The notes under the pieces: generated by a model
Told to the model about the DNA's origin: nothing
The model's input: only the letters and a program-made list of their open reading frames with translations
Databases searched by the model: none
Part shown: one piece after another, positions 33,231 to 40,200 of the stretch
Numbering within the stretch: the stretch's first letter is position 1
Layout: each line of letters starts with the position of its first letter
Translations under genes and position numbers: made by a program
Source: Octopus vulgaris
Taxonomy: Eukaryota
Assembly (NCBI GenBank): GCA_951406725.2
Contig: OX597816.1
Location: 144,584,001 to 144,648,000 of the forward strand
Length of the DNA: 64,000 nt
Direction of reading: 5' to 3'

Positions 33231-34204
33231 GTAAATTGTTTTTGTTTTGGTTAACTTCTTTTTTAATGCAAAATTTGTAATCCGATAAATTTTATAATGG
33301 ACTTTCTCTGTACAAAAAAAAAAAAATACAGGCTGAACAACCAAACAAATGGTTACTGTTTTACTCTGTATCACGCGGTATTCTTGTAATGTTTATGACT
33401 AAGACATTTTTTACAAACATCCTGATTACCTAGCTGCATATAAAAGTTTCATCCTGTTCACTGGTATAACAGCAGGATTATTGTAAAATTGATGAGTATT
33501 TTGTTAGTTTATGGCAAACTCTATGACCAATACTTTGTATGTGTATATAACTTAGAGAGGGAGGGAGACAGCTCCATTTGATCAACTTACCCTGAAGTTC
33601 TTTATGATTATGAATTTAACTACTCCTTATTGTAAATATAACAACCATAACTTAATATTTAATAGTTTATTGGTAGGTAATGATGTTCAAATGTTAATAT
33701 AACTGTTAAAAACTACTATCATAATTTTTGATATTTTTTAGATAAAACTTTATAGTTCAGGTAAAAACATTAGCCATATAAAAAGGTAAGTAGTCTATTA
33801 CCAAGAGTGTAAATTAATTCATTCATTTCTCATCCAGCTGAGAAGGTTCTTGATCAGGTCAGGTCAGGTATAATCAGATATGCTGCTGCAATGCATTGAT
33901 GCACATACCATTTGTTGGTATTTGTTTGGGTTGTACCAAGCAGTGTCCCAGTCAGTCCCCATCTCTGCAAGATACTACCTCATCCACTATGACTTGTGTG
34001 TGGTCAACTAGCATAAGCCATCACCCCAGATGGATCTTCAGAGAAGAGAACACAGTATGCAGAATCCAGTATACATATACATATATGAAAATTCTGTTAA
34101 TACATACCTACGTACATACATACATACATACACATACATACATACATACATACATACATATGACGCTAATTGATGATGATGATGATGATACATATATATA
34201 TAAA

Positions 34205-34538
34205 AAGGGTAAAGGCCCCCTTCGGTCATGAGTGACCATGGGTTTGCACCTAGAGAGTTACCCTCTGAGGCACAAGTCTGGGCAAGGTTTTTTTATGGAA
34301 GACCAGTAGTCGCCCATGCATACCGGCCTCCCCTCTCCACGCCACCAAGGGAAAGACAAAGGTCGATACAGCTTGGCACCTGTGACGTCGCAACTCATTT
34401 CTACAGCTGAGTGAACTGGAGCAATGTGAAATAAAGTGTCTTGCTCAAGAACACAACACGCAGCCCGGTCCGGGATTCGAGCTCACAACCTCACGATTGT
34501 AAGCTTGACGCTCTAACCACTGAGCCATGCGCCTTCAC
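34205..34538 (-). mobile_element. tRNA-derived SINE (family D)
   Basis: Minus strand GGCGCATGGCTCAGTGGTTAGAGC (A box), GCTCGAATCCCGG (B box) and GTTCTTGAGCAAGACACTT core. Confidence 0.85.
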
Positions 34539-34562
34539 ATATATATATATATATATATATAT

Positions 34563-37500
34563 AAAATAAATATAAGAGAGTGGTCACTATATGGCTCACT
34601 CTAGCACCAGTTAATCCAAAAGGTTTCAACCACAAAAATACATGTTTCCCATGAAAGTCAGTACGATTGTTAGCTCACACGGACAGGGCAAATAAAAAAT
34701 AACAAATACAGATTATTTTGGGACAATTGTTTCGCTATTAATGAATTAAATGTAATTTTACTTACAATAAAATCCACTTGTAGCTCTTCAGCCAAAACTA
34801 TCTGGATGAAATCCACTCAATCACACGCCAGATTTTACCATAACGATAAATACGCGTGTGGTTCAATTGATTACATCCGACGTTATAATTCAAATGCCCC
34901 AACTAACAGCGCGCCAAATTTTCACGGAAAACAAATACAGCATTTAGAAATAAATGCAGCATAATTATAATTAATTAATAAGGGTGAGAGAATTAGATAC
35001 TAATTTAATAGTATATCTATTCTACACCAAGTGGCCTAGTGCTCCGAGAAACCTGGATTATTATAATATTTTATAATATATTATAATATTTTTACAAAAT
35101 AAATATAAGAGAGTGGTCACTATATGGCTCACTCTAGCACCAGTTAATCCAAAAGGTTTCAACCACAAAAATACATGTTTCCCATGAAAGTCAGTACGAT
35201 TGTTAGCTCACACGGACAGGGCAAATAAAAAATAACAAATACAGATTATTTTGGGACAATTGTTTCGCTATTAATGAATTAAATGTAATTTTACTTACAA
35301 TAAAATCCACTTGTAGCTCTTCAGCCAAAACTATCTGGATGAAATCCACTCAATCACACGCCAGATTTTACCATAACGATAAATACGCGTGTGGTTCAAT
35401 TGATTACATCCGACGTTATAATTCAAATGCCCCAACTAACAGCGCGCCAAATTTTCACGGAAAACAAATACAGCATTTAGAAATAAATGCAGCATAATTA
35501 TAATTAATTAATAAGGGTGAGAGAATTAGATACTAATTTAATAGTATATCTATTCTACACCAAGTGGCCTAGTGCTCCGAGAAACCTGGATTATTATAAT
35601 ATTTTATAATATATTATAATATTTTTACAAAATAAATATAAGAGAGTGGTCACTATATGGCTCACTCTAGCACCAGTTAATCCAAAAGGTTTCAACCACA
35701 AAAATACATGTTTCCCATGAAAGTCAGTACGATTGTTAGCTCACACGGACAGGGCAAATAAAAAATAACAAATACAGATTATTTTGGGACAATTGTTTCG
35801 CTATTAATGAATTAAATGTAATTTTACTTACAATAAAATCCACTTGTAGCTCTTCAGCCAAAACTATCTGGATGAAATCCACTCAATCACACGCCAGATT
35901 TTACCATAACGATAAATACGCGTGTGGTTCAATTGATTACATCCGACGTTATAATTCAAATGCCCCAACTAACAGCGCGCCAAATTTTCACGGAAAACAA
36001 ATACAGCATTTAGAAATAAATGCAGCATAATTATAATTAATTAATAAGGGTGAGAGAATTAGATACTAATTTAATAGTATATCTATTCTACACCAAGTGG
36101 CCTAGTGCTCCGAGAAACCTGGATTATTATAATATTTTATAATATATTATAATATTTTTACAAAATAAATATAAGAGAGTGGTCACTATATGGCTCACTC
36201 TAGCACCAGTTAATCCAAAAGGTTTCAACCACAAAAATACATGTTTCCCATGAAAGTCAGTACGATTGTTAGCTCACACGGACAGGGCAAATAAAAAATA
36301 ACAAATACAGATTATTTTGGGACAATTGCTTCGCTATTAATGAATTAAATGTAATTTTACTTACAATAAAATCCACTTGTAGCTCTTCAGCCAAAACTAT
36401 CTGGATGAAATCCACTCAATCACACGCCAGATTTTACCATAACGATAAATACGCGTGTGGTTCAATTGATTACATCCGACGTTATAATTCAAATGCCCCA
36501 ACTAACAGCGCGCCAAATTTTCACGGAAAACAAATACAGCATTTAGAAATAAATGCAGCATAATTATAATTAATTAATAAGGGTGAGAGAATTAGATACT
36601 AATTTAATAGTATATCTATTCTACACCAAGTGGCCTAGTGCTCCGAGAAACCTGGATTATTATAATATTTTATAATATATTATAATATTTTTACAAAATA
36701 AATATAAGAGAGTGGTCACTATATGGCTCACTCTAGCACCAGTTAATCCAAAAGGTTTCAACCACAAAAATACATGTTTCCCATGAAAGTCAGTACGATT
36801 GTTAGCTCACACGGACAGGGCAAATAAAAAATAACAAATACAGATTATTTTGGGACAATTGTTTCGCTATTAATGAATTAAATGTAATTTTACTTACAAT
36901 AAAATCCACTTGTAGCTCTTCAGCCAAAACTATCTGGATGAAATCCACTCAATCACACGCCAGATTTTACCATAACGATAAATACGCGTGTGGTTCAATT
37001 GATTACATCCGACGTTATAATTCAAATGCCCCAACTAACAGCGCGCCAAATTTTCACGGAAAACAAATACAGCATTTAGAAATAAATGCAGCATAATTAT
37101 AATTAATTAATAAGGGTGAGAGAATTAGATACTAATTTAATAGTATATCTATTCTACACCAAGTGGCCTAGTGCTCCGAGAAACCTGGATTATTATAATA
37201 TTTTATAATATATTATAATATTTTTACAAAATAAATATAAGAGAGTGGTCACTATATGGCTCACTCTAGCACCAGTTAATCCAAAAGGTTTCAACCACAA
37301 AAATACATGTTTCCCATGAAAGTCAGTACGATTGTTAGCTCACACGGACAGGGCAAATAAAAAATAACAAATACAGATTATTTTGGGACAATTGTTTCGC
37401 TATTAATGAATTAAATGTAATTTTACTTACAATAAAATCCACTTGTAGCTCTTCAGCCAAAACTATCTGGATGAAATCCACTCAATCACACGCCAGATTT

Positions 37501-38883
37501 TACCATAACGATAAATACGCGTGTGGTTCAATTGATTACATCCGACGTTATAATTCAAATGCCCCAACTAACAGCGCGCCAAATTTTCACGGAAAACAAA
37601 TACAGCATTTAGAAATAAATGCAGCATAATTATAATTAATTAATAAGGGTGAGAGAATTAGATACTAATTTAATAGTATATCTATTCTACACCAAGTGGC
37701 CTAGTGCTCCGAGAAACCTGGATTATTATAATATTTTATAATATATTATAATATTTTTACAAAATAAATATAAGAGAGTGGTCACTATATGGCTCACTCT
37801 AGCACCAGTTAATCCAAAAGGTTTCAACCACAAAAATACATGTTTCCCAAGAAAGTCAGTACGATTGTTAGCTCACACGGACAGGGCAAATAAAAAATAA
37901 CAAATACAGATTATTTTGGGACAATTGCTTCGCTATTAATGAATTAAATGTAATTTTACTTACAATAAAATCCACTTGTAGCTCTTCAGCCAAAACTATC
38001 TGGATGAAATCCACTCAATCACACGCCAGATTTTACCATAACGATAAATACGCGTGTGGTTCAATTGATTACATCCGACGTTATAATTCAAATGCCCCAA
38101 CTAACAGCGTGCCAAATTTTCACGGAAAACAAATACAGCATTTAGAAATAAATGCAGCATAATTATAATTAATTAATAAGGGTGAGAGAATTAGATACTA
38201 ATTTAATAGTATATCTATTCTACACCAAGTGGCCTAGTGCTCCGAGAAACCTGGATTATTATAATATTTTATAATATATTATAATATTTTTACAAAATAA
38301 ATATAAGAGAGTGGTCACTATATGGCTCACTCTAGCACCAGTTAATCCAAAAGGTTTCAACCACAAAAATACATGTTTCCCATGAAAGTCAGTACGATTG
38401 TTAGCTCACACGGACAGGGCAAATAAAAAATAACAAATACAGATTATTTTGGGACAATTGTTTCGCTATTAATGAATTAAATGTAATTTTACTTACAATA
38501 AAATCCACTTGTAGTTCTTCAGCCAAAACTATCTGGATGAAATCCACTCAATCACACGCCAGATTTTACCATAACGATAAATACGCGTGTGGTTCAATTG
38601 ATTACATCCGACGTTATAATTCAAATGCCCCAACTAACAGCGCGCCAAATTTTCACGGAAAACAAATACAGCATTTAGAAATAAATGCAGCATAATTATA
38701 ATTAATTAATAAGGGTGAGAGAATTAGATACTAATTTAATAGTATATCTATTCTACACCAAGTGGCCTAGTGCTCCGAGAAACCTGGATTATTATAATAT
38801 TTTATAATATATTATAATATTTTTACAAAATAAATATAAGAGAGTGGTCACTATATGGCTCACTCTAGCACCAGTTAATCCAA
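34563..38883 (-). repeat. Tandem array of 8 complete 533-bp units plus a 57-bp partial unit; hammerhead-containing, retrozyme/Penelope-like
   Basis: Units start at 34563, 35096, 35629, 36162, 36695, 37228, 37761, 38294 and 38827, an exact 533-bp period. Only a handful of substitutions. No ORF of 60 aa or more in the track. Confidence 0.97.
34711..34802 (-). ncRNA. Type I hammerhead ribozyme, unit 1 (repeated at 35244, 35777, 36310, 36843, 37376, 37909 and 38442)
   Basis: Minus strand GATAGTTTTGG-CTGAAGA-GCTA-(43 nt)-TAGC-GAAAC-AATT-GTC-CCAAAATAATC. Full core, all three helices pair. Confidence 0.9.
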
Positions 38884-39400
38884 TGCATTTATTTCTAAAT
38901 GCTGTATTTGTTTTCCGTGAAAATTTGGCGCGCTGTTAGTTGGGGCATTTGAATTATAACGTCGGATGTAATCAATTGAACCACACGCGTATTTATCGTT
39001 ATGGTAAAATCTGGCGTGTGATTGAGTGGATTTCATCCAGATAGTTTTGGCTGAAGAGCTACAAGTGGATTTTATTGTAAGTAAAATTACATTTAATTCA
39101 TTAATAGCGAAACAATTGTCCCAAAATAATCTGTATTTGTTATTTTTTATTTGCCCTGTCCGTGTGAGCTAACAATCGTACTGACTTTCATGGGAAACAT
39201 GTATTTTTGTGGTTGAAACCTTTTGGATTAACTGGTGCTAGAGTGAGCCATATAGTGACCACTCTCTTATATTTATTTTGTAAAAATATTATAATATATT
39301 ATAAAATATTATAATAATCCAGGTTTCTCGGAGCACTAGGTCACTTGGTGTAGAATAGATATACTATTAAATTAGTATCTAATTCTCTCACCCTTATTAA

Positions 39401-39409
<9 letters not shown>
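38884..39409 (+). repeat. Inverted, circularly permuted copy of the 533-bp unit (526 bp)
   Basis: Reverse complement of the unit starting at TGCATTTATTTCTAAATGC. It crosses the unit junction near 39280 and ends in (TA)n. Confidence 0.97.
39040..39131 (+). ncRNA. Type I hammerhead ribozyme on the host-gene sense strand
   Basis: CTGAAGA 39051-39057, GCTA/TAGC helix II, GAAAC 39109-39113, GTC 39118-39120, TTTTGG/CCAAAA helix I. Confidence 0.9.
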
Positions 39410-39437
<28 letters not shown>

Positions 39438-39904
39438 CATTCAATAAATAATAATTATTACAAGGTTAAAGCTGATAAACAATCACAGTGTATTGGCTAA
39501 AGAAAATAGTCTAATAGTGGGACATATAAGCTCTCGATGGCAAAAAGTGGGTATTAGTATACATGGAAACATATTAATGTTAACATGCTGCCCCCTCAAA
39601 ATAAGGGTAGATGAATATTGCAAAGCTGTGACATGAGGAGATATTAATAAATTGGGTATAGCTGATCATGTGTGGAAAAATGGAGACCACCTCCCCCTGT
39701 GGGATGAAGTTAAAATAATAGACAGAGAATACCACTGAAAAAGACGAAAACTAAAAGAAGCAGCGCAACAACCCCCTAAGCAGACACAACAACCTCCTAA
39801 GCATACTGCGCACAGATATGAGCAGCATATGGGAACTGGTATTAAGGAAGGATAGGAAAATATTAGATTTATAAGCCCTAAAATTGACTCCATAATTGCC
39901 CACA

Positions 39905-40016: not shown

Positions 40017-40200
40017 TGATGATGATGATGACATCGAAAAATACCTTAGGAATGAGAACCCAGGTTCGAAATTTCCTCAAGACACCAGATGTGGCTGGAG
40101 GGTATATCAGCTGAAACGTGTTAACAACAAACAAGATGAGGACAAATATTCGTCAAATGTAAATAATGTACATAATAGCTCATCTCTTAAATATAAAACT
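39905..40200 (+). mobile_element. tRNA-like SINE head, (AAT)n/(GAT)n and a repeat tail with a decayed hammerhead-like motif
   Basis: TGGCATAGTGGTTAAG A box. ACAC-CAGATGT-GGCTG...CAGCT-GAAAC-GTGT at 40082-40121. Confidence 0.5.

Follow-up and report, generated by a model that had tools for sequence, protein, structure and literature searches.

Head-to-head insertions of a young octopus retrozyme point to reverse transcription primed at both ends of one staggered cut in (TA)n

How does a tandem array come to end in an inverted and incomplete copy of its own unit? The question is raised by a locus of Octopus vulgaris on contig OX597816.1, where it lies in a window (the whole stretch of 64,000 nucleotides that was analyzed, and whose coordinates are used here). 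A forward array with a period of 533 bp (34563-38883) holds eight full units and then 57 bp of a ninth, with five substitutions in total relative to unit 2. At 38883 the strand switches. An inverted arm of 526 bp (38884-39409), having one mismatch, then runs from unit phase 396 down across the unit junction to phase 404, which is 7 bp less than a full turn. Tracts of alternating A and T flank the array at both ends (34539-34563 and 39406-39434), the first four bases of the right tract being readable as element. The initial annotation of this DNA had described the truncated ninth unit, the inverted arm passing through the unit junction and the (TA)n at both ends, and alignment bears out each of these. 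The features are as follows.

34539-34562, no strand: left (TA)n target tract, forming the 3' terminus of a SINE-like repeat.
34563-38883, minus strand (the RNA sense): arm A, eight units plus 57 bp of the 533-nt unit, starting at site A (phase 1).
34722-34791, minus strand: core of the predicted type I hammerhead in unit 1 (phases 229-160), recurring every 533 bp in units 1-8.
38883-38884, no strand: blunt head-to-head joint between two 5'-truncated arms, with 0 bp of overlap.
38884-39409, plus strand: arm B, inverted, 526 bp, phases 396 to 1 and then 533 to 404, starting from site B (phase 404), next to the right end of the target.
38885-38902, plus strand: hairpin directly 3' of site B in the RNA; paired changes preserve it in other subfamilies, and it is not a preferred switch point.
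39038-39133, plus strand: predicted type I hammerhead ribozyme, with CUGAAGA at 39051, GAAA, a palindromic stem III of 2 bp and a predicted cut after GUC at 39120.
39280-39409, plus strand: "tail" of 130 nt, bounded by start sites A and B and present on the outer end of a single arm.
39410-39434, no strand: right (TA)n target tract.

The surroundings deserve a few words. The SINE-like repeat occupies 34200-34538, and its own 3' (TA)n is the target at this locus; the same repeat, at 86-92% identity, flanks the insertions at loci L045 and L067. Directly to the right of the (TA)n, at 39435-39770, lies a decayed reading frame that resembles the C-terminus of a Penelope GIY-YIG protein and is unrelated to the array; a Pfam search with 33 amino acids of this relic gave no match. 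Farther on, 40033-40190 belongs to a very high-copy repeat, the deepest in the comparison with contigs from public runs, and contains a decayed hammerhead-like stretch whose core looks intact in other copies.

What kind of element is this? The 533-bp unit has a GC content of about 32%, and carries what reads as a hammerhead ribozyme on the minus strand in the array and on the plus strand in the inverted arm: stem I, CUGAAGA, stem II (GCUA/UAGC), GAAA, a palindromic stem III of 2 bp, and GUC. Between 33500 and 41000, Rfam at E<=1 returned mir-297 on a simple repeat and no match to any hammerhead model, so that the type I assignment is made from the known core and from the pattern of variation. 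The core (CUGAnGA/GAAA/UC) is intact in 246 of the 266 motifs at the fetched loci, with N7 the position that varies freely (A, C or G). Across 14 variants, 96% of cells pair in stems I-III and three stem I pairs are doubly changed, figures that come from related sequences judged against a lenient shuffle control. The monomer folds with z=-7.3. In 16 of the 266 motifs the core carries U4C, and that subfamily has spread too. Its core is predicted to be weak or inactive, yet it has made new two-arm and multimeric insertions (L079, L081, L095).

The unit has no open reading frame of note; over three turns, the longest from Met to stop is 19 amino acids in the RNA sense and 52 in antisense. Lacking a frame for a reverse transcriptase with a GIY-YIG endonuclease, it is not an autonomous Penelope-like element, and an LTR/PBS/PPT layout is absent as judged from its ends, both of which abut (TA)n directly. 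It is, of course, abundant. An exact 22-mer anchor has 1098 matches in the 2.8-Gb genome; 97 of these fall in 40 loci on the largest contig, which gives an estimate of about 450 loci genome-wide. A looser hammerhead pattern occurs 2163 times. In the first sets of loci, copies differ from the window unit by 0.5% substitutions, and the lowest identity met in the family is 74%, in a subfamily whose unit measures about 502 nt. Among the public runs listed as containing the element, none is on record as RNA. By unit size, low GC, dispersal and predicted hammerhead, the element fits a young, non-coding, 533-nt non-LTR retrozyme.

If the inverted arm were an accident of one locus, little could be learned from it. 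Many insertions are available for comparison. The first sets comprised the window, 37 loci ranked by BLAST (a ranking that favors long, young arrays) and the 37 remaining anchor loci on the largest contig; removal of three duplicates of the L069 joint (L099, L100 and L101) left 72 independent loci. L069 was also kept out of the duplication test described below, and four complex loci (L049, L071, L086, L102) were kept out of the counts of variants and of inner ends. A replication set held 22 further loci of chromosome 1, from other subfamilies (74-97% identity), drawn from the first 100 rows of the hammerhead-pattern list; here, ends were read by eye.

The first sets divide into 40 loci with two arms and 32 with one. 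Their outer ends fall, within 8 nt, at one of two phases of the unit: phase 1 (site A) or phase 404 (site B), 130 nt apart. In all 36 of the classifiable two-arm loci, one arm begins at A and the other at B, where free choice of site would give this with p=1.5e-11. The replication set adds 15 two-arm loci, 14 of them classifiable, and all 14 are again A plus B. Combined, one site per arm is seen in 50/50 classifiable two-arm insertions (of 55), each with the 130-nt tail on one end only, and the arms are head to head (5' to 5', in the RNA sense) in 55/55. The exceptions, having an end at neither site, are L031, L034, L056 and L069 in the first sets (4/40) and L120 in the replication set (1/15); the odd end of L056 appears by eye to be an eroded A end.

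One-arm copies are divided between 17 with site A and 15 with site B, which means that both sites are used about equally. Seven of the 32 also retain a stub of a second arm, and in all seven the stub is of the complementary class (Fisher p=0.048). Arms have a median length of 758 bp and range from about 40 to 6810 bp, single arms reaching 10-13 units. In 18 of the 35 two-arm loci that were measured, both arms extend beyond the point where the other arm starts.

Several loci have peculiarities of their own. Short reiterated AT-rich motifs stand between (TA)n and the arm start at site A ends of L052, L079, L086 and others, suggesting slippage and re-priming at initiation. The joint of L069 recurs with identical flanks at L099, L100 and L101, all four places being on the largest contig, as would follow from segmental duplication or from a larger element that carries the insertion. 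The flanks of L034 (3060-3085 and 6470-6530) form an inverted rather than a direct target duplication, and its left arm is without site B. L120 (3060-3475) has an inverted arm from the divergent subfamily that meets the tail-bearing 3' end of a Hydra-like Penelope element; a 34-bp palindrome, and no (TA)n, connects them. This junction would be the product either of template switching from one RNA to the other or of an insertion that came afterward.

The inner ends behave differently from the outer ones. The initial annotation, which had suggested comparing end phases and inversion points among copies, had the strand switch land on the hairpin GCATTTA-GAAA-TAAATGC (38885-38902), with AATGCA as an overlap between the arms. 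The inverted arm does start one base outside that hairpin. The joint itself is blunt, the arms having 0 bases in common: AATGCA is the final AA of the forward arm followed by the self-complementary TGCA, and in the unit it occurs at phase 391, on the forward strand only. Across the family, outer ends recur at two phases, inner ends at scattered ones. Among the 37 joints there are 13 blunt ones, 15 with 1-3 bp of overlap, one with 6 bp and eight with fillers, some of them short and templated; the mean overlap is 1.07 bp, as against 0.78 for random joins. Neither the hairpin (7/141 inner ends at phases 378-398, with 5.6 expected; p=0.32) nor the vicinity of site B (13/141 against 9.8, p=0.17; scan statistic p=0.11) is enriched for inner ends. 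Near-mirror joints of the kind left by fold-back number 4/37, where about 4 (11%) are expected. A template switch directed by the hairpin or by microhomology is not supported, with hairpin hits at the level of chance and the AATGCA overlap absent.

The annotation had also offered twin priming as a mechanism. In twin priming of L1, as Ostertag and Kazazian are said to have described it, priming takes place at both ends of the target, so that the 5' segment comes out inverted and the RNA 3' ends both face outward; the second priming site is reportedly a chance internal microhomology, near which the first cDNA stops. The octopus element likewise has outward RNA 3' ends. Its two sites, however, are fixed, its arms overlap in the template, and a stop at the other primer is seen in 5/33 cases, where chance gives 4.9. 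Classical twin priming of the L1 type is not supported. What stands of the earlier proposal is reverse transcription on a circular or multimeric template with priming from both sides; its template switch does not.

Direct flank duplications containing G or C are found in 6/39 two-arm loci (6/7 of those having G or C in both flanks), where shuffling gives 1.0 and 0 of 2000 shuffles reach 6. One-arm loci show 1/32, which is chance level. The duplications span about 9-16 bp (that of L078 by eye). Most targets are, of course, pure (TA)n, and there any duplication would be invisible, the window locus included. If both ends prime, short duplications of this kind would imply staggered nicks with 3' overhangs.

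Fixed ends with a target duplication had been named in the annotation as the mark of a DNA transposon. That rule proves misleading here. The ends are fixed and duplications are present, but the two ends are different sequences rather than terminal inverted repeats and the lengths of the arms vary over the range given above, neither of which fits a DNA transposon or MITE. The annotation had overlooked both the hammerhead motif and the fixed, differing outer ends.

Do the two arms of one insertion share an origin? They agree at 1202 of 1209 polymorphic columns; the disagreement at 7/1209 compares with 7.1% for shuffled arms. In 6/37 loci, alleles private to the locus are common to both arms, and these favor one template or one source locus for the two arms. 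Whether that template was a circle or a multimer, the variants answer in a mixed way: of the private alleles, 5 are fixed, 9 are partial and 37 are single, without clean periodicity. Variants between units are in register across the arms at L037 and L054, partly so at L095, and out of register at L110; L041 has arm-specific alleles, and L116 and L110 have alleles in part of the array's units only. Such alleles mean that conversion after insertion, or heterogeneous source arrays, do occur. A test for A-to-I editing or strand bias, as traces of an RNA stage, gave 10 T>C against 7 A>G among singleton substitutions (p=0.23), with the pooled classes weakly biased.

These observations make it probable that the window holds a young retrozyme insertion whose head-to-head arms arose when a Penelope-type enzyme primed reverse transcription at both ends of one staggered cut in (TA)n. 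Here, a GIY-YIG endonuclease would nick the two strands some 9-16 bp apart, creating two 3' ends. One ribonucleoprotein, its protein probably a dimer, would present one of these ends to site A and the other to site B. Two enzymes would then copy toward the 5' end of the RNA, be it a circle or a tandem transcript, each passing the start of the other and covering 0.1 to 13 monomers. End joining would link the two 5'-truncated cDNAs head to head. Should one enzyme stall early, the result would be a one-arm copy, at times with a few bases of the complementary arm. The window locus would be such a two-primer product: a long A arm, whose cDNA would have grown rightward out of the left end of the target, and a B arm that halted 7 bases before completing one turn.

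A more general proposal can be made, tentatively, as something that may hold rather than something we expect to hold: Penelope-type transposition would be an obligatory two-primer reaction, in which a dimeric reverse transcriptase-endonuclease, one RNA and two structurally defined start sites, one for each end of a staggered break, support two strand-displacing syntheses. In retrozymes, these would proceed round an RNA circle made by the ribozyme.

The same arms might have been made in sequence. First-strand priming at one site would be followed by priming of the freed second target end at the other, with either the displaced template or another RNA of the same lineage to copy, so that A plus B would reflect two steps with different choice of site rather than a symmetric dimer. 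The genomic footprint would be identical, and genomic data cannot separate this from simultaneous priming; the out-of-register variants of L110 and the arm-specific alleles of L041 would fit separate template molecules or units. The near-equality of A and B among one-arm copies, however, implies that neither site is obligatorily first, unless either arm can abort, and the private alleles found in both arms speak for one template or source locus. Sequential priming is accordingly judged unlikely. Suppose instead that the inverted arm came from an antisense template by self-priming or fold-back, as PMC3846280 has it, or from a switch at a hairpin or microhomology. This reading would draw on a few near-mirror joints (L087, L078, L084, L092), on the slight excess of overlap at joints and on the short templated fillers. 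It is made quite improbable by the chance-level frequencies of mirror joints and hairpin hits, and it leaves unexplained why a second arm should end at the other fixed site against (TA)n.

Two further explanations dispense with an insertion event that makes both arms. Monomers might insert first, with arrays and inversions arising later in the DNA through unequal crossing-over, conversion and palindrome repair, the array model found in the available text of bioRxiv 10.64898/2026.07.22.740005. Partial alleles (9 partial against 5 fixed private; L116, L110) would fit such growth. It cannot, however, yield 55/55 head-to-head arrangements, 50/50 A plus B at (TA)n, or target duplications, and the copies are very young for single arms of 10-13 units; we regard it as highly improbable. 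The initial annotation had likewise set unequal crossing-over aside as the origin of the layout, and had read the locus as a Penelope-like insertion into (TA)n; the footprint of the family upholds both. Last, the inversion in the window might be an artefact of assembly or of a long read, such as a fold-back read. Its joint is without an independent spanning read or contig: in a comparison of the right end and the joint with contigs of five public runs, none of the pieces listed spans the joint and none represents an empty site, which is uninformative either way. Against this, the joint is no mirror fold-back (phase 57 meets phase 396), and the same layout, with different joints, recurs at 55 loci, a set in which outer ends are fixed and target duplications and private alleles occur. 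An artefact is thus scarcely credible.

Is there a candidate for the enzyme in this genome? Beside L052 lies a Penelope-type open reading frame with more than 20,000 candidate matches in the genome. Copies that were fetched have frames of up to 896 amino acids, with reverse transcriptase and GIY-YIG motifs read by eye, and carry a type I hammerhead whose stem III is palindromic; their targets are (TA)n, and their two 3' ends are separated by about 145 nt (a 145-nt tail). Pfam assigned two of these frames to no significant family, and a PDB sequence search with one had no match; their look-alikes in the Atlas (0.94-0.95) carry HTH_animal (in 10-69% of members) and RVT_1. The elements are called Hydra-like here because the hammerhead, the (TA)n target and the C-terminal endonuclease are as in PMC8557442, a name given from motifs and look-alikes rather than from a tree. 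In L126 (3512-5734), the frame has long asparagine-rich inserts between the reverse transcriptase and the endonuclease, resembling those of rotifer Penelopes in PMC3846280.

Among 45 loci of these elements, 16 are two-arm pairs of the same family, and a tailed arm meets a tailless one in 16/16. Ten of the 16 came from selection for a tailed arm. Two cases with divergent neighbors were excluded, L166 and L160; the latter has a tailed hit on the opposite strand (76% against 95% identity) and was taken as a different insertion, with which the tally would be 16/17. Similarity in sequence is another matter: the resemblance between retrozyme and Hydra-like tails is not significant (of 300 shuffles, 14-124 do equally well), and comparison of the retrozyme with 16 Hydra-like loci and four tails gave no significant match. 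The Hydra-like family is the likeliest candidate for the partner enzyme, by common footprint and not by homology.

How much of this was already known? Metazoan non-LTR retrozymes, as described by Cervera and de la Pena (2020, PMC7229834) and by Li, Clavereau and Pollet (2026, bioRxiv 10.64898/2026.07.22.740005) so far as their accessible text goes, are tandem units of about 50-1000 bp, low in GC and non-coding, with a type I hammerhead in each and a Penelope-like mobilizer proposed. The octopus element shares the non-coding, low-GC tandem units, the type I hammerhead (here predicted), and the dispersal as monomers to multimers. It differs in its inverted arms, fixed start sites and targeting of (TA)n, features without description in the accessible text of either source (the main text of PMC7229834 has 0 instances of the word "inverted"). 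Circular RNA expression has been shown for the published retrozymes, whereas the octopus element is known from genome sequence. The bioRxiv text ascribes arrays to local unequal crossing-over.

For Penelope-like elements, the accessible parts of Arkhipova et al. (2013, PMC3846280) and Craig et al. (2021, PMC8557442) report inverted copies, an inverted pLTR, a one-sided tail of 30-40 nt and duplications of 8-10 bp; in these accounts the tail is optional, and antisense self-priming or resolution by the endonuclease is given as the cause of the layout. Compared with these endonuclease-bearing elements, the octopus element has no open reading frame, its tail is 130 nt rather than 30-40, both of its arms can be multimers, and there is one tail per two-arm insertion in 50/50. 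The closest biochemistry is that of Poseidon from Anolis (Frangieh et al., 2024, PMC11167929), where the accessible text describes, in vitro, cleavage at AT-rich sequence, both strands cut and extended, two internal start sites bounding the tail, a predicted dimer, and insertion for which hammerhead cleavage is dispensable. Against the present reading, no difference in start site between the strands was seen there in vitro, and the accessible text reports no pairing of sites within one insertion. In Poseidon, the sites are tens of bases apart in a coding RNA; in the octopus element, they are 130 nt apart in a non-coding one.

Thus, two start sites, a one-sided tail and inverted copies are already published. 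What is new is the strict pairing of one site with each arm, and its extension to a non-coding element. In the literature searched by title and abstract (a search with subscription papers and supplements outside it), neither a one-site-per-arm rule nor such a footprint in retrozymes was found. PMC8557442, PMC7229834 and bioRxiv 10.64898/2026.07.22.740005, in the text available, pose as open questions the origin of the tandem and inverted insertions of Penelope-like elements and the identity of the enzyme that mobilizes animal retrozymes.

The value of this family is that it is young, with hundreds of near-identical insertions, so that the footprint becomes something that can be counted: two start sites, one per arm, and target duplications. 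The link that this makes between retrozymes and the Penelope machinery is one of mechanism and not of co-occurrence. The footprint further argues for insertion as the moment at which arrays arise, and provides evidence, for this 533-nt family, against the model of antisense self-priming. The strict pairing of A with B is, in turn, a precise prediction for experiments in vitro. If true, an obligatory two-primer mechanism would account for pseudo-LTRs, inverted copies, the one-sided tail and multimeric retrozyme arrays alike, and in the 533-nt RNA one would have a minimal, natural substrate with which to reconstitute the two-primer reaction.
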